Source: Escherichia phage vB_EcoS_IME347. Taken from it: DNA of 50,048 bases. Every line of letters begins with the position of its first letter. Within the stretch, counting starts at the first letter, position 1. The DNA lies in the sequence record MH051918; one strand, given 5' to 3'. Position numbers and translations under genes: made by a program. This document shows positions 19 to 50,048 of the stretch, in pieces. The notes beneath the pieces were generated by a model, which did not search any database, had not been told where the DNA came from, and saw only the letters and a program-made list of their open reading frames with translations.

Positions 19-36
19 TTTAGCAAAAAGTGCTAT
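19..36 (-). promoter_or_regulatory. box copy without a canonical -10 partner inside the window
   Basis: The plus strand reads TTTAGCAAAAAGTGCTAT, identical to copy 49862-49879. The expected -10 position would fall left of base 1. Confidence 0.4.
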
Positions 37-37
37 C

Positions 38-139
38 GTGACAAGATTACATTGACTCGCTGTATATCACTGTCTACAATTTCCCGGATTTGTCGGCGTG
101 ACAAAATTACACCTCGCGCCCCTGAGAGTGAGATTACAT
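38..139 (+). repeat. three direct GTGACAARATTACAY repeats
   Basis: GTGACAAGATTACAT at 38-52, GTGACAAAATTACAC at 98-112, GTGAGATTACAT at 128-139. Start-to-start spacings are 60 and 30 nt. Confidence 0.6.
52..80 (+). promoter_or_regulatory. sigma70-like promoter TTGACT-17-TACAAT
   Basis: TTGACT at 52-57, a 17-nt spacer, TACAAT at 75-80. Flanked by GTGACAARATTACAY repeats. About 365 nt upstream of the first ORF. Confidence 0.55.
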
Positions 140-418
140 AACTCTATGATATATATAATAATAATAGTTAAATTTTATCTTTTATATACATAAAATATTG
201 TATTGTCATTGTGGCGTATAGGGTGTACACAATGTATATCTCAGATTTCGTGAAAATGATAATTCATGGACATTTATACAGTACTCTATTTGCATATGCT
301 TATATAGGGAAAACACAGTGACATTGTATACAGTGTGTACACCGCAAAAAAATGCGCCGCGAGCCATTGTAAACGCTGGATTCTTATGTCAACATAGCCA
401 CTTATTGACGCCCCGATA
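70..418. repeat. control region copy A (colinear with 31182-31529)
   Basis: Shared boxes are CTGTCTAC (70), GGCGTGACAAAATT (95), CTTTTATATA (179), a 48-nt box at 311-358, AAACGCT (371) and TGACGCCCCGATA (406). Confidence 0.7.
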
Positions 419-450: not shown

Positions 451-972
451 ATGAGCAATACCAATCAGCAACCACAAATCACCGACATGATTCGCCTTGC
501 CTGTCAAAATCACTACGCCGCAGGTGAAGCCATGTTCAGCTTCGACGCGCAACAAATGGCCTTCCACACCGTCAAGAAGTATGCGGAGCAATCCGGGATG
601 GATATCACCGACGAGCAGATCGACGAGGAAGCCGCTCGTTGGGTGGGGCAGAATACCGAGAACATTGCGAAGCGGTTCAAGCCGTCATTTGCGCAGCCGA
701 TCATTAAGCGATTCTTTGCTCACATCGGAAAGGCCGTCGTGGTGAATACCGGGCGCAACGATGCCAACGAACCGATGATTACCGTGACCATTACGGACGA
801 GGAAGTCGTGAAGCCGCAGCGCAAGAGCCGGGCGAAGAAAAAGCAATCCATCGGGGACATTCTGGATTCGTTCGTCGTGGACGTGTCGAAGCTCGGGGAT
901 TCGGAGTTGATGGTTCGCGATGTGAATGAAATCGTTCGGCAAATGAAGGAGCACATCCTGAAAGGTGAATAG
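451..972 (+). CDS. hypothetical early protein, 173 aa
   Basis: Track ORF. AAGGAG lies 6 nt before the ATG. First gene right of control region A. Its stop TAG is the TAG of box 969-986. No domain recognised. Confidence 0.8.
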   Translation: MSNTNQQPQITDMIRLACQNHYAAGEAMFSFDAQQMAFHTVKKYAEQSGMDITDEQIDEEAARWVGQNTENIAKRFKPSFAQPIIKRFFAHIGKAVVVNTGRNDANEPMITVTITDEEVVKPQRKSRAKKKQSIGDILDSFVVDVSKLGDSELMVRDVNEIVRQMKEHILKGE

Positions 973-1012
973 CACGAATTGCTAAAACAGGCGGAAGGGA
1001 ATCCGCTATTAT
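969..1012 (+). promoter_or_regulatory. box/-10 promoter cassette
   Basis: Box ATAGCACGAATTGCTAAA (969-986). Inverted repeat GCGGA/TCCGC (991-1006). 22 nt after TTGCTA comes TATTAT (1007-1012). Confidence 0.6.
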
Positions 1013-1048: not shown

Positions 1049-1234
1049 ATGAAAATCATCAAAGTGGGTTATGACATCGTTAACGGCAAAAACTTTGCAT
1101 ACGGCGAAAACTTCCAGTTTGAAATCACCGAAGCGGATCGCATTAATTGGAACTTCGACCTGCTCAACGGCTTTGATCTTGAAATCACTCGTGAAGATTT
1201 CGACGCGCTGACTTGCGAGAAATACGAATACTAA
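1049..1234 (+). CDS. hypothetical small early protein, 61 aa
   Basis: Track ORF. Preceded by cassette 969-1012 and an A/C-rich leader. Its TAA overlaps the first base of the next box. Confidence 0.75.
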   Translation: MKIIKVGYDIVNGKNFAYGENFQFEITEADRINWNFDLLNGFDLEITREDFDALTCEKYEY

Positions 1235-1277
1235 TAGCACGAATTGCTAAAGCCCGGTCAATCGGATCGGGTATAGT
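1234..1277 (+). promoter_or_regulatory. box/-10 promoter cassette
   Basis: Box ATAGCACGAATTGCTAAA. Inverted repeat CCCG..CGGG in the spacer. 22 nt spacing to TATAGT (1272-1277). Confidence 0.6.
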
Positions 1278-7253: not shown

Positions 7254-7439
7254 ATGATGCAAGTCACCAGCTACACCCAATCGACAGCCGAAGCAATCAG
7301 CGAACTTCGAAAGGTTGCCGACGCGCTGGAGAAAGGCGAGGCTATGCTTTATAGCGGATCAGTTACCAACACCAAGCGTTACGGCGAAGCCCGTGAATAC
7401 GCTATCGAAATCACAGTAGTCACCGATAAGGAGATGTAA
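7254..7439 (+). CDS. hypothetical small early protein, 61 aa
   Basis: Track ORF. Cassette 7174-7217 upstream, with the AACCAATCAGAGG leader. Confidence 0.75.
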   Translation: MMQVTSYTQSTAEAISELRKVADALEKGEAMLYSGSVTNTKRYGEAREYAIEITVVTDKEM

Positions 7440-26101: not shown

Positions 26102-29100
26102 ATGAATCAAAAAGTGATAAGCGGCTCAAAGGGTGGCGGCGGAAGTCCGCACAAGCCCGTTGAAATGGAAGATAACCTGATCTCCATCAACAAAATCAGA
26201 GTTCTACTCGCTGTGTCTGACGGTGAAGTAGATCCCGATTTCGATATGTCCATGTTGTACTTGGACAACGTTCCAGTGATGAACAAAGACGGAACTTACA
26301 ACTACGAAGGAATCAAGGCGGAGTTCCGCCCCGGCACTCAGACGCAGGATTACATTCAGGGGTTCACCGACAGCGCAAGCGAAGTCACTATGAACCGGGT
26401 AATCAAAACTGACACCCCGTTTAGCATCAACGTTACGAACCGGAACCTTTCGGCAATCCGAATCAAGATGTTCATGGCTCGCGGCGTAAAGGTTGAGAGC
26501 AACGGCGACAAGAACGGCGTTCGCGTTGAATACAAGGTTGAAATGGCTGTGGATGGTGGAGCTTTCGAACCTGCACTCACTGACGTGATTGACGGAAAAA
26601 CAATGTCAGGATATGACCGTAGCCGCCGCATTAATCTGCCCTCGTTCAACTCTCAGGTGATCTTGCGAGTGTCTCGCGTAACGCCGGACTCCGACGATTC
26701 CAACCTGATTGACGAGATCCAGTTGCGCAGCTATGCGGAGGTTATTGACGCGAAGTTTCGTTATCCGCTGACCGGGCTACTGTTCGTTGAGTTCGATTCG
26801 CAGATGTTCCCGAACCAGATCCCGAACATTTCAATCAAAAAGAAATGGAAGGTTGTCAATGTACCGACGAACTACAACCCGGTAACTCGTGATTACTCTG
26901 GCACTTGGGACGGAACGTTTAAAAAGGCGTGGACGAACAACCCGGCTTGGGTTCTGTACGACATTATCACCAACCAACGTTACGGGCTTGACCAACGCGA
27001 GCTTGGGATTGATGTTGATAAGTGGTCGCTTTACGACGCCGGGCGCTATTGTGATCAGATGGTTCCAGACGGAAAGGGCGGAACCGAGCCGCGATATCTA
27101 TGCGACGTGGTTATTCAATCGCAGGTTGAGGCGTTTAAACTGGTGCGCGATATCTGCTCAATCTTCCGGGGTATGAGCTTTTGGAACGGCGAAAGCCTGT
27201 CTATTGTGATCGACAAGCCGCGCGAGCCGTCTTACATCTTCACGAACGAGAACGTTGTGAACGGTAATTTCTCATACGCTTTCGCGAGTGAGAAAAGCAT
27301 GTATACGGTGTGCAATGTCCAGTTTGATGATGAAGAGAACCTTTATCAACAGGACGTGGAGCCTGTTTTCGATACTGATGCGGCTCGCAGATTCGGCAAC
27401 AACCCGACGAGCATTACAGCGATCGGATGTACCCGGCGCAGTGAGGCTAATCGCCGGGGGCGCTGGATTCTCAGAACCAATTTACGAAGCACTACGATCA
27501 GTTTTGCTACCGGATTGGAAGGAATGATTCCGCAGATTGGCGATGTTATCGCGGTGGCGGATAACTCATTCTCAAGCAACCTCACGCTTAACCTTTCTGG
27601 TCGCGTGATGGAAGTTTCGGGATTGCAGGTTTTCACCGCCTTTAAGGTTGACGCTCGCGCAGGTGATTTTATTGTCGTAAATAAGCCGGATGGGAAGCCC
27701 GAGAAGAGGACTATCGCATCGGTATCGCCTGACGGCAAGACTATACAGTTAAACGTCGCATTCAGCTTCTCTGTGGCTCCTAACACTATCTTTGCAATTG
27801 ACCGCACGGACGTAGCGTTACAGCAATTCGTTGTTACGGATATTTCCAAGGGCGACAATGAAGAAGAGTTTGTGTTTAGCATTACTGCGGTTGAGTATGA
27901 CCCGAACAAGTACGACGCGATCGACTACGGAGTAAACGTTGACGAAAGGCCTACAAGCATTGTCGATCCTGACAAGCTTCCTCAGCCGCAAAACGTGCAG
28001 ATTGAGTCCTTCTCTCGTGTGGTTCAGGGCGTAAGCGTTGAAACGATGGTTATCAGTTGGGATAAGGTTCAGTATGCGGCTCAGTACGAAATCCAATGGC
28101 GAAAGGGTAATGGCAACTGGATTAACACGACACCAACGGCGAACAATGAAACGTTTATCGAAGGCATTTACGCCGGGCAATACTTCGTTCGGGTTCGCGC
28201 TGTATCGTCGGCGGGCAATGCTTCAATGTGGTCTGAAGTTGTCAGCGCATCACTGACGGGTAAAGTCGGAGAGCCGGGTTCGCCAATTAACTTCACGGCG
28301 TCCGATGATGTTGTTTTTGGCATTCGCCTGAAATGGGGCATGCCGGAAGGGACTGAAGATACCGCATATATTGAGGTTCAGCAGTCACCAAACAACAGCA
28401 TTGAAAATGCATCACTGCTAACGCTCGTTCCATACCCTCAACATGAGTATTTCCATACTCCACTTGAGGCCGGGAAGATGATCTTCTACCGCATTCGTGC
28501 GATAGACAGGATCGGAAATGTGTCCGGGTGGACTGACCTGATTCCGGGGATTGCCTCAACTGACGTTGAGAGCATTATCGGGGAAATCAAGGTTGATATC
28601 GAAAACTCCGAGGGGTTCAAGTGGTTGCAGGAAAATGCGGTAGATGCAAACTCGAAGATTCACGGGGCGGCTGAAGCGATAATCGAAACCACGCTGGCTA
28701 ACGATCGTGATGTTCGTATTCAGCGCAAGCGGAACGGGAAGTTCACTGCTCAGTTTAAGCAGTCATTCCAGTTAATCGCAGATGAAACGCAAGCAAGAGT
28801 TGAGCAGTATCAGGAGTTACAGGCCGACTTTGACGGAAAGATAACCGCAACTTCAACTCAGCTTAACCAGGCGATCGCTAACGAAAGGGAGGCGAGAACA
28901 ACTCAGGTAAACCAGATTAGCGCAACGTTCGGCGGAAACCTTGACGATCTTAGCGATAGGGTTGATGGTGATATCGGGGATCTTAATGGAAGGGTTGATG
29001 GTGAGGTTCGGGCTCGTCAAGCTGCGATCTCAAACGTAAACCAAGCCATTGCGAACGAAACCGAGGCGCGAGTTCAGGCTATCAATGATTTGAAAGCGCA

Positions 29101-31096: not shown

Positions 31097-31127
31097 AGCA
31101 TTTTCCTCCCAAAATTAATGAATACAC

Positions 31128-31156
31128 ATATTAGCTTTTTGCCCTCGGGGAGTCAA
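31128..31156 (-). promoter_or_regulatory. sigma70-like promoter TTGACT-17-TAATAT (leftward fibre-accessory operon)
   Basis: Read on the minus strand: TTGACT (31156-31151), a 17-nt spacer, TAATAT (31133-31128). About 30 nt before ATG 31096. Confidence 0.6.
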
Positions 31157-31344
31157 AGTTACAGATTTTGCGGTGTAACATCTGTCTACTTTTGTAACCA
31201 AAATGAGGCGTGACAAAATTCGCTCATTTTTTAATCAGCATGACGCACCTTAAGATATAGAAAACTCCTTATAATATATATAGATAGATATAAATTGTTA
31301 TTTTACCTTTTATATATAAATTAGAGGTGTAACCGTTGTATATA

Positions 31345-31368
31345 TTGTCACGGTGTATTTTGTGATGC
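31345..31368. repeat. 24-nt box ATTGTCACGG-N3-ATTTTGTGAYG, copy 1
   Basis: Inverted half-sites GTCAC-N10-GTGAT (31347-31366). Confidence 0.55.
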
Positions 31369-31497
31369 GCTCAATTTTCTACATCATAATCATGTGAATT
31401 CTGTATTGCGGTATTTTTCTATAAACACAGTTACATTGTATACAGTGGTTACGCCGCAATAAAACACGCCTCAAACGCTTGATATTTATGGACTCGC

Positions 31498-31522
31498 ATT
31501 GTCACGGGTAATTTTGTGACGC
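31498..31522. repeat. 24-nt box, copy 2 (perfect GTCAC-N10-GTGAC)
   Basis: GTCAC at 31501-31505 and GTGAC at 31516-31520. About 30 nt upstream of the -35 of promoter 31552-31579. Confidence 0.55.
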
Positions 31523-31551
31523 CCGAATACACTCATTGACATCGTTACAGG

Positions 31552-31579
31552 TTGACTAAATGCCGGGAATGGTTATACT
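31552..31579 (+). promoter_or_regulatory. sigma70-like promoter TTGACT-16-TATACT (exo-erf-ssb)
   Basis: TTGACT at 31552-31557 and TATACT at 31574-31579. About 30 nt before ATG 31610. Confidence 0.6.
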
Positions 31580-31609
31580 GTCCACATCATCAACGAAGGA
31601 GATAAACGA

Positions 31610-32686
31610 ATGTTCAAGGTATTCACGAATGACCAGCTTTCTAACGACGCATATCACGATCCTGAAGGTTGGGCGGCGGAGTACGTAAGCGGCTCAAGCC
31701 TCGCAGAAATCTTCAATACCTGCCCTGCGAACTGGCGGTTCAAGAAGAACGAGATCACAAAGGCTCTTGAGTTCGGTACTCAGTCACATACGAACTTCGA
31801 AAGCAAGGCTCTGTTTGAGGCGTCATATAAGCGCTGCCCTCACCCGAAAGAGTTTAAGGATCTGATTACGTCACAGTCGGCTCTCGCTGCGAAATTAAAA
31901 TCATTCGGCCTGAAAGGTACGAGCGGCAAGCAATATCCCGATCTGATTCGCATGATGGTTGATTGCGGTGAAATGCTCAACGTGCAATGGCTAATTGAAA
32001 TGATCGCGGAAGCGGAAGCGCGAGCGGAAGGAAAGAAACTTGTGGACGCCGAAGCATACGACGCTTGCGTAACAATGCGCCAAGTTCTGGAGAACATCCC
32101 CGAGCACAACGCTTGCATTAACAGCCCAACGGCGATGCATGAGGTTTCAATCTTCGGGGTGATTTCAGGAGTCAAAGTCAAGGTTCGCTTAGACCATCTG
32201 GATTTCGCGGAGAACGTTCAGGCGCGTGTCCTGACTGGTTTCAACAACGAAGGCGAACCAGAATACGAAGATGTGATTTACCCTGAAGCTCTCGTGATTA
32301 CCGATTTCAAGACAACCCAAAGCGCTAACCCGATGGAGTTCCCGAGGCTCGCGTTCAACCACGGCTACTACCTGAAAATGTCACTACAACATGACCTGCT
32401 CAAGCGAGCGATTCAGGCCGGAGCGTTCGAAGGGGTGAGCAAGGACATTCCTATTATCGTTCGCCTACTCGCTCAGGAGAAGAAAGAGCCTTATCTGCCT
32501 CTTGCGTACCGCATGACGATGGAGCAGATCAGGATCGGGCGTCAACAATATATCAGCGTTGTCCACACGTTTAAAGAGTGCTTGGAGTCAGACGTTTGGC
32601 CTTCATACGCTAACGGAGCGGCAGAGGTTGAACTGGAAACTCCGAAGTTCGTTCGCTACCAGTATGATTCACGTTGCAGCATGTAA
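31610..32686 (+). CDS. PD-(D/E)XK recombination exonuclease (RecE/Cas4-like), 358 aa
   Basis: The D...(D/E)xK pattern appears in VRLDHLD...VITDFKTTQS. Sits upstream of erf and ssb. Confidence 0.7.
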   Translation: MFKVFTNDQLSNDAYHDPEGWAAEYVSGSSLAEIFNTCPANWRFKKNEITKALEFGTQSHTNFESKALFEASYKRCPHPKEFKDLITSQSALAAKLKSFGLKGTSGKQYPDLIRMMVDCGEMLNVQWLIEMIAEAEARAEGKKLVDAEAYDACVTMRQVLENIPEHNACINSPTAMHEVSIFGVISGVKVKVRLDHLDFAENVQARVLTGFNNEGEPEYEDVIYPEALVITDFKTTQSANPMEFPRLAFNHGYYLKMSLQHDLLKRAIQAGAFEGVSKDIPIIVRLLAQEKKEPYLPLAYRMTMEQIRIGRQQYISVVHTFKECLESDVWPSYANGAAEVELETPKFVRYQYDSRCSM

Positions 32687-36873: not shown

Positions 36874-36900
36874 CTTTTGTGTTTTAGCTATTTGTGCTCT
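36857..36900 (-). promoter_or_regulatory. box/-10 promoter cassette (primase)
   Basis: Read on the minus strand: AGAGCACAAATAGCTAAA. 22 nt spacing to TAAACT. The hexamer lies in the loop of CGCGTA/TACGCG, which is followed by T6. Confidence 0.55.
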
Positions 36901-37327
36901 CGACTTCATCCTTTCGAACTACGCGCATGAACTTGCGGTTCTTGCATCGTTTTTCAAGGCACTTTCCGTTAGAGTCGAACTTGAGATCGAATCGCAGCCA
37001 GCTTGCGCGATACCCGGTACAACCCTGACGACGATACGCGCGATGCGCCGCCTCCGCTCCCTGCCAAGAAATCATGCCGCGAACTTTCCATTCGTTCACA
37101 TTCTGATTTGTTACCTTCAGGGCTTTCGCCGTGGCGGAGGGGGAGCCGTAGAATTCGATCAGGGCGTCAAGTCTGGCGCGTAGTCCGGCGCGAACCTCAT
37201 CTTTCAGGATGTAGAATCCGCATCGCTTGCGAGGCTTTACATCTTTGCCCCGTCGTGTACCATTGTTCCCGTTCAGGTGACGACGATCGATTTCCCCGGT
37301 TGATTCTGCAATACGCTTGATTGTCAT
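36884..37327 (-). CDS. HTH DNA-binding protein (YdaS/Cro-like) with basic Cys-containing C-terminus, 147 aa
   Basis: SATAKALKVTNQNVNEWKVRGMISWQGAEAAH resembles the YdaS/Cro-type HTH. Its last codons (AGC ACA AAT AGC TAA) form box 36883-36900. Confidence 0.55.
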   Translation of the reverse strand: MTIKRIAESTGEIDRRHLNGNNGTRRGKDVKPRKRCGFYILKDEVRAGLRARLDALIEFYGSPSATAKALKVTNQNVNEWKVRGMISWQGAEAAHRAYRRQGCTGYRASWLRFDLKFDSNGKCLEKRCKNRKFMRVVRKDEVESTNS

Positions 37328-37340
37328 AATAAATTCCTCA

Positions 37341-37383
37341 ATAGCACTTTTTGTTAAAACTAACTAATCGATGCGTGTATTAT
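37341..37383 (+). promoter_or_regulatory. box/-10 promoter cassette (helicase)
   Basis: Box ATAGCACTTTTTGTTAAA. 21 nt spacing to TATTAT (37378-37383). Inverted repeat GCGTG/CGCAC. Confidence 0.55.
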
Positions 37384-39954: not shown

Positions 39955-40668
39955 ATGAAAGATATCGAAGATATTTCAACGATCGACTTTGCGGAAACTG
40001 GATGTTCATTTACTCGCGAAGCGCTGGCGGTTTCCGGGTATTATTCAGCGGTTAAAACTCCAACCTGCAAAGAAATCTCAGGCCGCAGATACAAGGGAAC
40101 CAATACGCCGGACGCCGTTCGCGATCTGTGGAGCACTTCTCGCGAGGTCATTGCGTACATGGAAGGCAGATATGGGAAATATGATCTTGACGCTGCGGCG
40201 AGCGAAGATAATAAGGTCTGTGAGAAATTCTACTCACAGGAAACTAACTGCCTAAAAAGATGGTGGGGCAAGAACAAGCACGTTTGGCTGAATCCGCCAT
40301 ACAGCCGCCCGGACGCCTTCGTTAAAAAGGCTATTGAGCAAATGGAGCACGGAAACCAAATTGACATGCTTCTGCCCGCCGATAATTCTACGGCATGGTT
40401 TACTGAGGCTCGCCGTAACGCTGCGGAAATCATCTGGATTGAAGGCGATCTTTATCAGGATCTTGACGGTACGGAATACTCCCGTTCAGGACGTTTGGCC
40501 TTCATTTCTGGTGAAACCGGAAAGCCAGTTGACGGCAACAATAAAGGCTCTGTTATCTTTATCATGCGCCAACTCGCGGAAGGTGAGAAGCAGAAAACCC
40601 ACTATGTCAGCATTGCGGATATTTGCCCGTCCGTTAAAAACAAACGCGCAAGAGCGAGGAATATCTAA
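39955..40668 (+). CDS. dam: DNA N6-adenine methyltransferase (phage Dam family), 237 aa
   Basis: The catalytic NPPY motif appears in VWLNPPYSRP. The family pattern is that of phage Dam methylases. Confidence 0.8.
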   Translation: MKDIEDISTIDFAETGCSFTREALAVSGYYSAVKTPTCKEISGRRYKGTNTPDAVRDLWSTSREVIAYMEGRYGKYDLDAAASEDNKVCEKFYSQETNCLKRWWGKNKHVWLNPPYSRPDAFVKKAIEQMEHGNQIDMLLPADNSTAWFTEARRNAAEIIWIEGDLYQDLDGTEYSRSGRLAFISGETGKPVDGNNKGSVIFIMRQLAEGEKQKTHYVSIADICPSVKNKRARARNI

Positions 40669-45003: not shown

Positions 45004-46566
45004 TTACATTAAGCGCGGATTGATATAAATGTTGTCGTCCACACGGCAAACGTAATTCATGCTTTCCAGCGTTTCCAGCAACGTTTCGATACGCTCCGCA
45101 ACCTTTTGCTGCCCGTTAAACGGAGTGACGTTCCGGCACTTCGCGATCACGCTCTGAATCTGCGCCCGGCCTTTGTTCTTTTTGGCGATCTCACTAACCA
45201 CGTCGATAAGCTTGCGTGATTCAGCTTCATCACCTGCGAAACCTGCGGCGTTTGCAGACGAGAGATAAGTTTTTGACAACTCGTTAAACGTCATGATCGC
45301 TTCCTGCATTGTGTCCAAGTCGATCTCACGATTCGCCCGGTTCGGCTTCTCACCAGCCCAATTCTTGATCGTGTGAATCACGGACGCGATACGAATTACG
45401 TGTTTATCGAATTTCCCCAAGTGACCGCGCAACATGGAGTGTGAGTATTTCCCGCCCGCCGCGAAGCTGGCTTCCATATCCTGACGAGCAAGGTTCAGCG
45501 CTCGGGTTGCGTGAAGGCTCAGGCTGAAAACTACCTTCTCTTCGTTCATGACGTTATGAACGAGGCGGTAATATTTGCTCACGAGCGCCTTGTCAACTGG
45601 CTTGTAAACTGCGTCGCCGTTCTCGTCACACAATACGCGAGTACCCAAACGAGGCTCTTCGCGAACCAGTAAGAAACGCTCGGAAACACCGATACCGCGC
45701 TGACCTGCATCCATGATGCCCTTGATTGTTTCGTCCTGCGCGATTACGCAAATTGCACCAACCGGACGTAAAGAAAGGTTGTTGTCCTGATTGGATCGAG
45801 CTACTTCCATATGGTTCATATCCCAAGCCTTCAGGATTAGCTCGCTGTTCGACTTCTTATCAGTCCCGCCATACGTCAAACCGAGAAGTGTATTGATTGC
45901 CGTCGCTTCGTCCGAGATAACGGAGAAGTTACCCTGAATCGCCGCAACCTTAGCCAAACCCTCTGGAGTAGGATCGGAAACCGCAAACACAACGTTAGCA
46001 GCCTTTTTGAGCTTCTCTTCGATTTTCTCCTTCTCTTCGTACAGGGCAACCATTGAGTTTCCTTTTACGTCGTTCTTGATCTCCTTTTCGATCTTGCGGA
46101 GTTCCCCGGCGAGGCGTGAACGTTCGGCCTTACGCTTCTCGTTGATGCGGTCAATCTCTGCTCGCATCGGGTTAATGGCTGCGGAGTTGATCGCAGATTT
46201 ACCCGTTGACGGCGGCTGGCTGATTACCATGTAAAGTGCGGTTGGCTGCTCTTCACCGTGATAGTCAACCCAAAAGCGACCGAGCATCGCGGCGGACATA
46301 CATCCGATAAAGTGAGCGTATGCGGACGAAACCGGGAATTGCACTGATTCAGCTTTAGCCTTTGCGTATTCGTAAACGAGGTTATCGCCACCGAGGGAAA
46401 TCAACGGAAAACGATCGTTGCCGCTGTTAATCTCTTCGGGCTTATCCCAAAAAGCAAATGAATCCGAGAAGCCGTTTTCGCGAATAGCGATCGCCACCGG
46501 ATTTACTCCAGTAGCTGCGGCGATTTCTTGGATCTGATTGATGGAAAGTTTATTTTGGAAGAACAT
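45004..46566 (-). CDS. DUF3987-like P-loop protein (putative replicative helicase/primase-associated), 520 aa
   Basis: Walker A-like ISQPPSTGKS, preceded by a long N-terminal domain. AAGGAG RBS. Cassette 46595-46638 upstream. The family assignment is from memory of the DUF3987 pattern. Confidence 0.55.
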   Translation of the reverse strand: MFFQNKLSINQIQEIAAATGVNPVAIAIRENGFSDSFAFWDKPEEINSGNDRFPLISLGGDNLVYEYAKAKAESVQFPVSSAYAHFIGCMSAAMLGRFWVDYHGEEQPTALYMVISQPPSTGKSAINSAAINPMRAEIDRINEKRKAERSRLAGELRKIEKEIKNDVKGNSMVALYEEKEKIEEKLKKAANVVFAVSDPTPEGLAKVAAIQGNFSVISDEATAINTLLGLTYGGTDKKSNSELILKAWDMNHMEVARSNQDNNLSLRPVGAICVIAQDETIKGIMDAGQRGIGVSERFLLVREEPRLGTRVLCDENGDAVYKPVDKALVSKYYRLVHNVMNEEKVVFSLSLHATRALNLARQDMEASFAAGGKYSHSMLRGHLGKFDKHVIRIASVIHTIKNWAGEKPNRANREIDLDTMQEAIMTFNELSKTYLSSANAAGFAGDEAESRKLIDVVSEIAKKNKGRAQIQSVIAKCRNVTPFNGQQKVAERIETLLETLESMNYVCRVDDNIYINPRLM

Positions 46567-49794: not shown

Positions 49795-49835
49795 GAGTTG
49801 CTCCGTTGTTTTGTGTGCTTCGTTTCGATGAGTGT

Positions 49836-49879
49836 ATTATGCCAAACCAAGCCGATCGATGTTTAGCAAAAAGTGCTAT
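49836..49879 (-). promoter_or_regulatory. box/-10 promoter cassette
   Basis: Read on the minus strand: ATAGCACTTTTTGCTAAA. 22 nt spacing to TGgCATAAT. No clear inverted repeat. First leftward promoter of the right arm. Confidence 0.6.
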
Positions 49880-49894
49880 TCCTGAAATTGTCGA

Positions 49895-49925
49895 TTATTC
49901 CACCGATTCTGGAATAACTGGAATA
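49895..49925. repeat. inverted repeat TTATTCC-N9-GGAATAA plus direct CTGGAATA x2
   Basis: TTATTCC at 49895-49901 and GGAATAA at 49911-49917. A second GGAATA lies at 49920-49925. Confidence 0.5.
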
Positions 49926-49927
49926 CT

Positions 49928-50012
49928 TGATGATTACTCATGATTGCAAATGACAAGTTGTGATTATTGCGTGATGTGGAATGATTGCTGTGATTGTTGC
50001 TTGTAATGCAAT
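49928..50012 (+). repeat. phased TGAT(T/G) repeats
   Basis: TGATT or TGATG occurs near 49931, 49941, 49961, 49971, 49982 and 49991, mostly in steps of 10-11 nt. Followed by TGTAATGCAATGAATG. Confidence 0.5.
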
Positions 50013-50048
50013 GAATGTGGAGGGGAGATTATTATGATGCGCTCCTCG

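Follow-up and report, generated by a model that had tools for sequence, protein, structure and literature searches.

Paired iteron-bearing noncoding modules of phage vB_EcoS_IME347 and its Drexlerviridae relatives as candidate replication origins of T1-like phages

The 50,048-nt genome of phage vB_EcoS_IME347 (Drexlerviridae), which is the whole stretch of DNA analysed here (the window), is complete and circularly permuted, with structural genes ~79% identical to those of the Sertoctavirus phages SRT8 and BrunoManser, and ~72% identical to those of T1-like Tunavirus. Two of its noncoding modules, A and B, are considered here. Module A belongs to an intergenic region (49795-50048 plus 1-450) located between a leftward operon of small genes (last gene 49794-49516, DUF5417) and the rightward gene gp1 (451-972, ATG at 451); the module itself is bounded by a leftward 21-nt repeat element (16-36) and by this ATG. 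Module B (31150-31580) is flanked on its left by the leftward cor-like gene 31096-30788, whose SRT8 homologue is annotated Cor, and on its right by recE-erf-ssb, where a RecE-like protein (exonuclease VIII) is encoded at 31610-32686. A sequence-only reading of the window had described the modules as noncoding stretches of ~350 bp; such a stretch is indeed present around A, but it is longer than was then thought, with 49795-50048 running on into 1-450, as in the 713-bp intergenic region of BrunoManser.

The two modules are homologous. Local alignment of 1-450 with 31097-31609 gave a score of 69, as against 21.9 +/- 2.6 for 500 dinucleotide shuffles (z 17.9), and global alignment of 70-418 with 31182-31529 gave z 23.8; the pairwise alignment suggested along with the sequence-only reading thus reveals similarity well above that of shuffled sequence. 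Because the zero-offset diagonal is far richer in identities (155/349) than neighbouring diagonals (84-114), the modules can be considered colinear, with no net indel. All of the boxes listed previously lie where they had been placed: CTGTCTAC (box 1; 70 in A, 31182 in B), the identical 14-mer GGCGTGACAAAATT (box 2; 95 and 31207), CTTTTATATA (179 and 31307), a 48-nt box with 41/48 positions identical (311-358 and 31423-31470), AAACGCT (371 and 31473), and TGACGCCC(C)GA(A)TA (406 and 31517). In both copies, box 2 starts 25 nt after box 1, and the 48-nt box starts 216 nt after box 2. The proposed length constraint holds for these two distances but not for AAACGCT, whose offset from the first position of the 48-nt box is 60 nt in A as against 50 nt in B. 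Alignment scores, boxes and distances together establish the duplicated, colinear, length-constrained noncoding module as genuine.

Module A contains the following features:

37-450, no strand: module A as a whole, iteron arrays and AT core; colinear homologue of module B, with orthologues before the first rightward gene in all relatives
52-80, + strand: sigma70-like promoter TTGACT-17-TACAAT into module A (promoter scan, 10 of 12)
87-111, no strand: left inner box, palindrome ATTTGTC-GGCGT-GACAAAAT, which includes box 2, GGCGTGACAAAATT (repeat analysis)
140-205, no strand: AT-rich core, 88% A+T, candidate DNA-unwinding element (duplex stability)
196-240, no strand: iteron cluster I (TGTATT, TGTCAT, GTGTACAC, TGTATA), adjoining the core on its right (inverted repeat with cluster II)
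264-285, no strand: A-specific conserved spacer element TCATGGACATTTATACAGTACT, kept in the A modules of IME347, BrunoManser, Shfl1, ADB-2 and T1
311-358, no strand: iteron cluster II, CAGTGACAT TGTATACAG TGTGTACAC plus A-tract CGCAAAAAAATGCGCC; equals the 48-nt box
365-437, no strand: right-hand boxes CATTGTAAAC, ATGTCAACA, TTGACGCCCCGATA and ATAGACACTGTAAC (iteron scan)

The promoter at 52-80 overlaps two iterons with its spacer and -10 element, TGTATA (61) and TGTCTA (71), of which the second corresponds to box 1. Equivalent 10/12 sites were found only in the A modules of Tunavirus and the IME347 lineage; in B modules and in other subfamilies, the promoter scan identified no comparable 10/12 promoter into the module. 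The statement that the modules 'head' the two rightward operons therefore holds as one of position, not of demonstrated function, a promoter into the module being confined to some A modules.

Module B contains the following features:

31128-31156, - strand: sigma70-like promoter TTGACT-17-TAATAT at the left edge of B, for the cor-like gene (promoter scan)
31171-31220, no strand: left iteron cluster, GGTGTAACA TCTGTCTAC TTTTGTAAC rightward, then inverted GGCGTGACAAAATT; equals boxes 1 and 2
31250-31320, no strand: AT-rich core, 86% A+T, candidate DNA-unwinding element (duplex stability)
31325-31372, no strand: iteron cluster I, GGTGTAACC GTTGTATAT ATTGTCACG plus GTGTATTTTGTGATGCGCTC (repeat analysis)
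31423-31470, no strand: iteron cluster II, CAGTTACAT TGTATACAG TGGTTACGC plus A-tract; counterpart of the 48-nt box
31472-31484, - strand: IHF consensus match TATCAAGCGTTTG, overlapping the AAACGCT box (consensus match only)
31498-31551, no strand: right-hand iterons ATTGTCACGG, TTTTGTGACGCC (inverted copy of box 2) and CGTTACAGG (inverted repeat)
31552-31579, + strand: sigma70-like promoter of recE-erf-ssb, TTGACT-16-TATACT, just beyond the iteron array (promoter scan)

The outward sigma70-like promoters attributed to the flanks of B were thus both recovered (31156-31128, - strand, and 31552-31579, + strand).

The ordered boxes described earlier are not unrelated motifs but members of one family of ~9-bp iterons (cores TGTNAC, TGTCTA and TGTATA), arranged in oriented clusters. 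The hexamers TGT[ACG]AC, TGTCTA and TGTATA occur 12 times in A, 14 times in B and 54 times in the other 49 kb, as against ~0.5 expected per module, an enrichment of >25-fold for which P-values are generous, the motif having been set after looking at the modules. From left to right, each module comprises a rightward iteron cluster with box 1, the inverted box 2, the AT core, cluster I, a spacer of ~90 bp, cluster II with its A-tract, more iterons, and the promoter of the rightward operon (clear for recE, poor for A). The core of each module is 66-71 bp long with 86-88% A+T, the general description of the modules being a core of 60-70 bp with 85-95% A+T. The 60-nt window starting at 144 in A is the least stable duplex in the genome (dG -55.5, z 6.1), and that starting at 31263 in B is the second least stable (dG -57.3, z 5.7), the next site reaching z 3.8.

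On either side of the core, the inner iterons follow a simple pattern (of sequence): box 2, on the left, is leftward, facing away from the core in A, and cluster I, on the right, is rightward. Clusters I and II consist of three units each (I rightward, II leftward) and are inverted copies of each other, the 48-nt box being composed of three tandem 9-mers plus the A-tract. In A, cluster I forms the left arm of an inverted repeat with cluster II (222-238 and 327-343; 17 nt, 94% complementary, z 8.1 vs. shuffles). In B, cluster I is the left arm of an inverted repeat of ~30 nt with 31426-31455, and it is also repeated in direct orientation at 31498-31522 (84% identical). The last box, TGACGCCC, is likewise an inverted copy of box 2, a pairing seen in B, where 31207-31220 and 31510-31523 are 93% complementary. 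The sequence ACAAAAT is unchanged in 10 aligned Tunavirinae modules, and its distance from TGTCTA, counted by hand from the alignment, is 20 nt in module A of Shfl1 vs. 29-31 nt in the other modules. Such 10-nt differences in spacing, including that of AAACGCT (60 vs. 50 nt), maintain helical phase, pointing to a role played as DNA.

Rather than an oddity of one phage, the module pair is family-wide and ancient in Drexlerviridae: both copies are kept in 24/24 genomes from which both modules were recovered, including T1, TLS, Rtp and BrunoManser. Similarity between A and B reaches z 6-30 in 18 IMG/VR genomes, and is also significant in IME347, BrunoManser, Shfl1, JMPW1, ADB-2, IME18 and TLS; in Rtp, the shared boxes were recognised by inspection, and in T1, A and B were each read separately, without an A-B comparison. 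The number of outlying AT cores is exactly two in each of Rtp, TLS and BrunoManser, and a core lies 328-389 nt upstream of the recE ATG in 41/42 loci. An equivalent of the recE promoter is kept in all subfamilies; the promoter itself has a diversity of 0.015. Divergent flanking units, attributed to both copies and found for both in IME347, do not define the family, since module B of TLS, L168 and L170 comes after the terminator of a rightward gene and has one adjacent promoter only. Inverted arms at core+55..85 and core+165..200 are recognisable in most of 45 modules (only 18 with z >3, median 2.4). Most modules have three-unit tandem clusters (8-10-bp units) at core+165..205 or adjoining the core on its right; in a minority, the best-scoring triple falls within the spacer or promoter.

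Iteron sequence, like that of the inverted arms, varies by lineage, with arm positions and spacing kept. Iteron types are as follows:

IME347: GTGACA, GTTACA, GTATACA
SRT8 and BrunoManser: GTAATC, TACATCTTA, TTGTCTAA
T1-type module B: TAGACA, GTTACA
T1 and ADB-2, module A: CGATTAACA, three times
One Tunavirus, module A: TCGGTTGCA, twice
L170, module B: TTGTCTAAG, three times
L166, module B: CTTTACAA, three times
TLS-like: GTGAACA, TTGTTC

The perfect tandem 9-mers of these relatives (TTGTCTAAG, CGATTAACA, CTTTACAA and TCGGTTGCA) are a typical iteron trait. Outside the core, A shares ~2x more 7-mers/8-mers with its own B than with the B modules of unrelated clades (for IME347, 26 shared k-mers, compared with 11.3 on average and at most 17), indicating partial concerted evolution.

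The modules are also constrained. In module B of 14 T1-type phages, diversity in 30-nt bins is 0.000-0.148, vs. 0.204 at third codon positions of recE, with values of 0.000-0.005 in the AT core and ~0.03 in cluster I. T1-type module A ranges from 0.00 to 0.17, vs. 0.198 at third codon positions of gp1, its spacer element TCATGGACATTTATACAGTACT showing only 0.00-0.03, and TLS-type module B ranges from 0.015 to 0.106, vs. 0.169 at third codon positions. Across these three independent sets, diversity per 30-nt bin is 0.00-0.17, mostly <0.10, and lower than at third codon positions in the neighbouring gene, so that purifying selection acts on all ~450 bp. The core sequence of module A is the same in the close relatives L159 and L162.

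In L173 and L174, which are more distant phages, the DUF3987 helicase, primase, RadD-like helicase and RecE are all encoded as well, and one long intergenic region directly upstream of the replication operon has an A/T-rich centre, nested inverted repeats, numerous CTTACA/TGTAAG boxes and a tandem 9-bp unit, TTCCTTACA. The 21-nt direct repeat of TLS and T1 (aaATAGCACnnnTTGnTAAAA), of which 31 dispersed copies lie at gene junctions, oriented with transcription, resembles the modules in being a family-wide noncoding repeat with no assigned function, and one leftward copy (16-36) adjoins module A; it differs from them in its sequence, its dispersal and its location outside the duplicated module.

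The replication genes of IME347 encode a zinc-ribbon primase, a Cro-like helix-turn-helix (HTH) protein, a RadD-like SF2 helicase, a VRR-NUC protein, and the following DUF3987 protein:

45004-46566, - strand: DUF3987 protein, predicted to be an AAA+ helicase (MCM-like, winged helix at the C-terminus); candidate partner acting in trans on the modules

Scans against Pfam, PHROG and NCBIfam returned only the primase, the HTH protein, the RadD-like helicase and the DUF3987 helicase, and no match to the DnaB family or to a dedicated initiator was obtained in Pfam scans of the proteins tested. MCM-like helicases of staphylococcal pathogenicity islands (SaPIs) act at origins in which 6-12 iterons lie on both sides of an AT-rich centre, in opposite directions; they self-load there, and their C-terminal winged helix recognises the iterons (PMC9371898). 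The DUF3987 gene is 3.5 kb from module A, past ~ten small genes, and 13 kb from module B. When read by eye, the predicted third helix of its winged helix is acidic, which is odd for a DNA-recognition helix.

Neither candidate binder was observed to co-vary with the cluster II iterons of module A: among T1-type phages that differ in these iterons, the C-termini of the DUF3987 proteins and the HTH proteins are essentially identical. The same variants keep the inner iterons that adjoin the core (TGTAAT/TGTAAC type). The HTH protein (36884-37327) is family-wide, and its recognition region is identical in IME347 and BrunoManser, though their iterons differ. The SF2 helicase was rejected as an iteron-type partner (92% identical between IME347 and BrunoManser), and, being RadD-like, is probably a repair or accessory enzyme. 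Also rejected was gp1 as a linked initiator: TLS gp01 and Rtp1, at the same position, have no detectable homology to it, it is 71% identical between IME347 and L162 despite different iterons, and it lacks a DNA-binding fold and family-wide conservation. In T1-type phages, the whole A module is swapped together with the N-terminal half of gp1.

What, then, might the modules do? 'Regulatory or replication module', as they had been described, turned out to be the right short list, and we put the chances at about even that A and B are paired replication-origin-type elements. An initiator encoded by the phage would assemble on oriented iteron arrays around an AT-rich unwinding core; the most plausible one is the MCM-like DUF3987 helicase, which would bind through its C-terminal winged helix and load itself, as do the Rep helicases of SaPIs; the separate zinc-ribbon primase would then prime, and the host polymerase elongate. 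The two copies could represent two origins; or one could be the origin and the other an initiator-bound site aiding the switch to recombination-dependent concatemer synthesis, as has been proposed for phage SPP1.

Several observations argue for this reading: the cores are the two least stable duplexes of the genome; tandem 9-mers and a >25-fold iteron enrichment mark the modules; and the pair is family-wide, under purifying selection, and subject to partial concerted evolution. An MCM-like helicase is encoded, and the iteron/AT layout resembles that of the staphylococcal islands; L173 and L174 combine the same gene set with a comparable upstream intergenic region. In addition, no other candidate for the origin of T1-like phages has been reported (PMC11447400). 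Other observations count against it. The helicase C-terminus does not track iteron variation, which speaks against a simple assignment to this protein, as does its acidic third helix against an origin reading with DUF3987 as the binder, and the modules are distant from the helicase gene, unlike staphylococcal origins. The diversity of 0.000 in the AT core exceeds what easy melting would need, and could reflect a promoter or protein-binding site instead; a transcriptional role would fit the rightmost iterons equally well, as they abut the -35 element of the recE promoter.

A DnaA-dependent, oriC-like origin was rejected: the DnaA box TTWTNCACA occurs once in 42 modules (vs. 3.2 in shuffles), and GATC is absent from both A and B (284 in the genome). 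A phage-specific origin is still compatible with these counts. GC skew follows the direction of transcription and provides no independent replication signal.

Comparison with known systems reveals both precedents and differences, the nearest analogues being SaPI origins in their iteron, AT-core and helicase logic and SPP1 oriL and oriR in their pairing. Like the origins associated with SaPI Rep helicases and SCCmec Cch, the modules have iterons around an AT-rich centre in a genome encoding a helicase with a C-terminal winged helix, and the SaPI layout matches the inner part of the T1-like modules. However, the SaPI origin is single and immediately downstream of rep, whereas two copies are found here, kilobases from the helicase gene, with ~9-bp units in at least four clusters over 400 bp, including paired inverted three-unit clusters. 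Moreover, the winged helix recognises the iterons in SaPIs, whereas here the helicase is only a candidate binder, with a C-terminus that does not match iteron variation.

The duplication had seemed unusual for a virulent phage, but SPP1, another virulent pac siphovirus, has separated origins, oriL and oriR, alike in organisation (direct repeats plus an AT-rich unwinding element) and both bound by gp38; its second copy has been proposed to stall forks, leading to concatemeric replication via exonuclease, annealase and SSB (PMC6316719). Shared with SPP1 are the lifestyle, a genome of ~44-50 kb, and two regions of repeats with an AT-rich element, and here module B precedes recE-erf-ssb. In contrast, oriL lies within the initiator gene whereas both modules are intergenic, initiation in SPP1 takes a dedicated origin-binding protein together with a loader and a DnaB-type helicase whereas the candidate replicative helicase here is MCM-like, and the SPP1 origins and these modules have no sequence similarity.

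The lambda origin and the plasmid origins of RK2 and pPS10 also combine tandem direct repeats beside an AT-rich unwinding element with lineage-specific iterons and IHF-like sites, but their iterons are 17-22 bp long, as opposed to ~9 bp and contiguous here, and the present modules have no DnaA boxes and lie outside any gene, with no recognised O- or RepA-type initiator. Satellite phage P4 has two cis regions, ori and crr, kilobases apart and carrying the same short iterons, to which its alpha protein, a fused SF3 primase-helicase, binds through a C-terminal domain. These two regions with common iterons are the point of likeness; crr, a tandem duplication, does not have the architecture described here.

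The main rival to the origin reading is transcription control, and the two roles are mutually compatible. The modules would then be operator/activator arrays for a phage regulator (e.g. the HTH protein 36884-37327) that times the edge promoters, possibly assisted by IHF, with the AT core serving as an UP-like or bending element or an internal promoter; we regard this as a serious possibility, if short of probable. Sigma70-like promoters do lie at the module edges, and in all subfamilies the last iterons are immediately followed by the recE promoter. Most iterons lie 100-400 bp away, however, the ~15 sites being distributed over 400 bp and mainly remote from any promoter, and the single adjacent promoter of module B in TLS, L168 and L170 also counts against such an array. 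Similarly, the AT core starts with a conserved TATAAT-like hexamer and its exact sequence is kept, yet by inspection this hexamer has no good upstream -35 element. The IHF consensus is enriched (WATCAANNNNTTR-type sites number 21 in 42 modules vs. 2.9 in shuffles), and the comparable region of L173 and L174 is the promoter region of the replication operon; extreme duplex instability and inverted three-unit clusters ~100 bp apart are, however, atypical of operators. The HTH protein, a suitable regulator in being family-wide, has the same recognition region in IME347 and BrunoManser despite their different iterons.

Much less probable is a role in another DNA transaction, such as pac recognition, a recombination hotspot or binding of host nucleoid proteins. 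Module A adjoins the region assigned to the pac end in the records of T1 and TLS, but the pac-proximal block (49883-50048, with TGATT repeats) is separate, far more conserved, and without counterpart at B, and T1 has a single pac site. Module B adjoins recE-erf-ssb, but had no match in E. coli genomes or plasmids; IHF-like sites are present, but lineage-specific iterons disfavour a host protein of fixed specificity.

No more probable is the idea that the modules act as RNA (a structured 5' leader, a nut- or put-like antitermination element, or a small RNA, once per rightward operon head): transcription from the 10/12 promoter at 52-80 would enter A, a long stem can form between clusters I and II in both modules, and T1-like genomes have many intergenic terminators (PMC11447400), but no comparable promoter serves B or other subfamilies, the conserved recE promoter downstream of B implies that B is not part of the recE transcript, Rfam models gave no match to the modules, whether at the gathering threshold or at E-values up to 1, folding z is only -1.96 and -1.37, neither tandem direct 9-mers nor an 88% AT core resemble features of an RNA, and the single SRT8/BrunoManser substitution pair compared by hand in the arms is not compensatory.

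Returning to the origin reading, a more specific two-site form of it can be offered tentatively, as conceivable but unlikely. The MCM-like self-loading helicase, or another iteron binder, would act on two paralogous 400-bp modules with different jobs: one would fire as the origin, and the B-side copy would serve as a roadblock or pairing partner in the transition from theta replication to recombination-dependent concatemers, the inverted three-unit clusters providing a platform for loading or pairing. The constant position of module B in front of recE-erf-ssb makes such an SPP1-like switch attractive here, by analogy.

T1 is one of the seven classical T phages. In the literature, we found nothing on T1 origins, on start-site maps of Drexlerviridae, on the noncoding regions of IME347, or on the modules themselves, and a 2024 re-analysis of TLS reported no origin-type repeats anywhere in its genome and listed the replication origin among the unknowns (PMC11447400). 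The modules described here are the best candidates yet for the unmapped replication origins of the T1 phage family. For an origin built of iterons and an unwinding element, they would be unusual in being duplicated family-wide, in having contiguous 9-bp units in nested inverted clusters, in being tied to an MCM-like helicase, and in being found in a classical coliphage. With two family-wide candidate sites, defined iterons, a core and a candidate helicase, the question of the T1 origin is now testable. The answer would be relevant to the engineering of Drexlerviridae, which are common therapy and fermentation-contaminant phages, to the use of MCM-like helicases by bacterial viruses, and to whether paired origins of the SPP1 kind may be a general strategy of pac-type siphoviruses.

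Module A, the one of the two homologous noncoding iteron modules that lies at the start of the window, is swapped in its entirety as a cassette in T1-type loci (L091, L093, L147, L083 and L172), where the exchanged segment also takes in the first rightward gene's N-terminal half. The swap is seen among Tunavirus genomes that are near-identical elsewhere, and the cassette comes in three or more types. The breakpoints fall at a 21-nt repeat and in the middle of the first rightward gene. This repeat, ATAGCACnnnTTGnTAAA, is known from phage TLS and is present in 31 copies in the window (vs. 0.27 expected), most of them located at gene junctions and oriented with transcription; GAA and TTT subtypes can be distinguished. 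Two TTT copies (16100 and 19908) are antisense within the late region. Examples of the repeat, and the other features discussed here, are as follows:

19-36, minus strand, 21-nt repeat
969-986, plus strand, 21-nt repeat
1234-1251, plus strand, 21-nt repeat
37341-37358, plus strand, 21-nt repeat
49862-49879, minus strand, 21-nt repeat
264-285, A-specific element, TCATGGACATTTATACAGTACT (relatives' form, TTTATA(TA)TACAGTA)
39955-40668, Dam-like methylase gene of the phage
49883-50048, running on into 1-15, block of TGATT(A/G)TTGC-like repeat units with GGAGGGGAGATTATT at its end

The A-specific element is kept across Tunavirinae A modules with a diversity near zero, and has no counterpart in module B. 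The regions of both modules (1-450 and 31097-31609) contain no GATC sites; the genome as a whole, which encodes the Dam-like methylase, contains 284, or one per 176 bp.

In Rtp (28260-28658), the annotated start of rtp46 falls within the right-hand iteron boxes of module B; either the start has been assigned to the wrong codon, or rtp46 has been inserted between module B and recE. The more distant phage L173 carries the same replication gene set as the window, and the centre of its comparable intergenic region is occupied by an (AAC)n run of ∼12 units (7386-7433) in place of a mixed AT core.

An ORF (MMRSSPTDFS...) preceded by a Shine-Dalgarno-like sequence extends from 50035 across the window junction to ∼140. 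BrunoManser shows loose conservation of the ORF start but not of the length (20 aa in BrunoManser, 12 aa in Shfl1); this ORF is probably not a gene.

The TGATT-repeat block is ∼95% conserved in the relatives L162 and L163, in which the module A boxes have diverged. The first base of the T1 record, in which 1-2800 is annotated as terminal repeat, falls within the equivalent block, and the TLS record begins at its inferred pac motif, AGATTT. The block probably represents the pac region.
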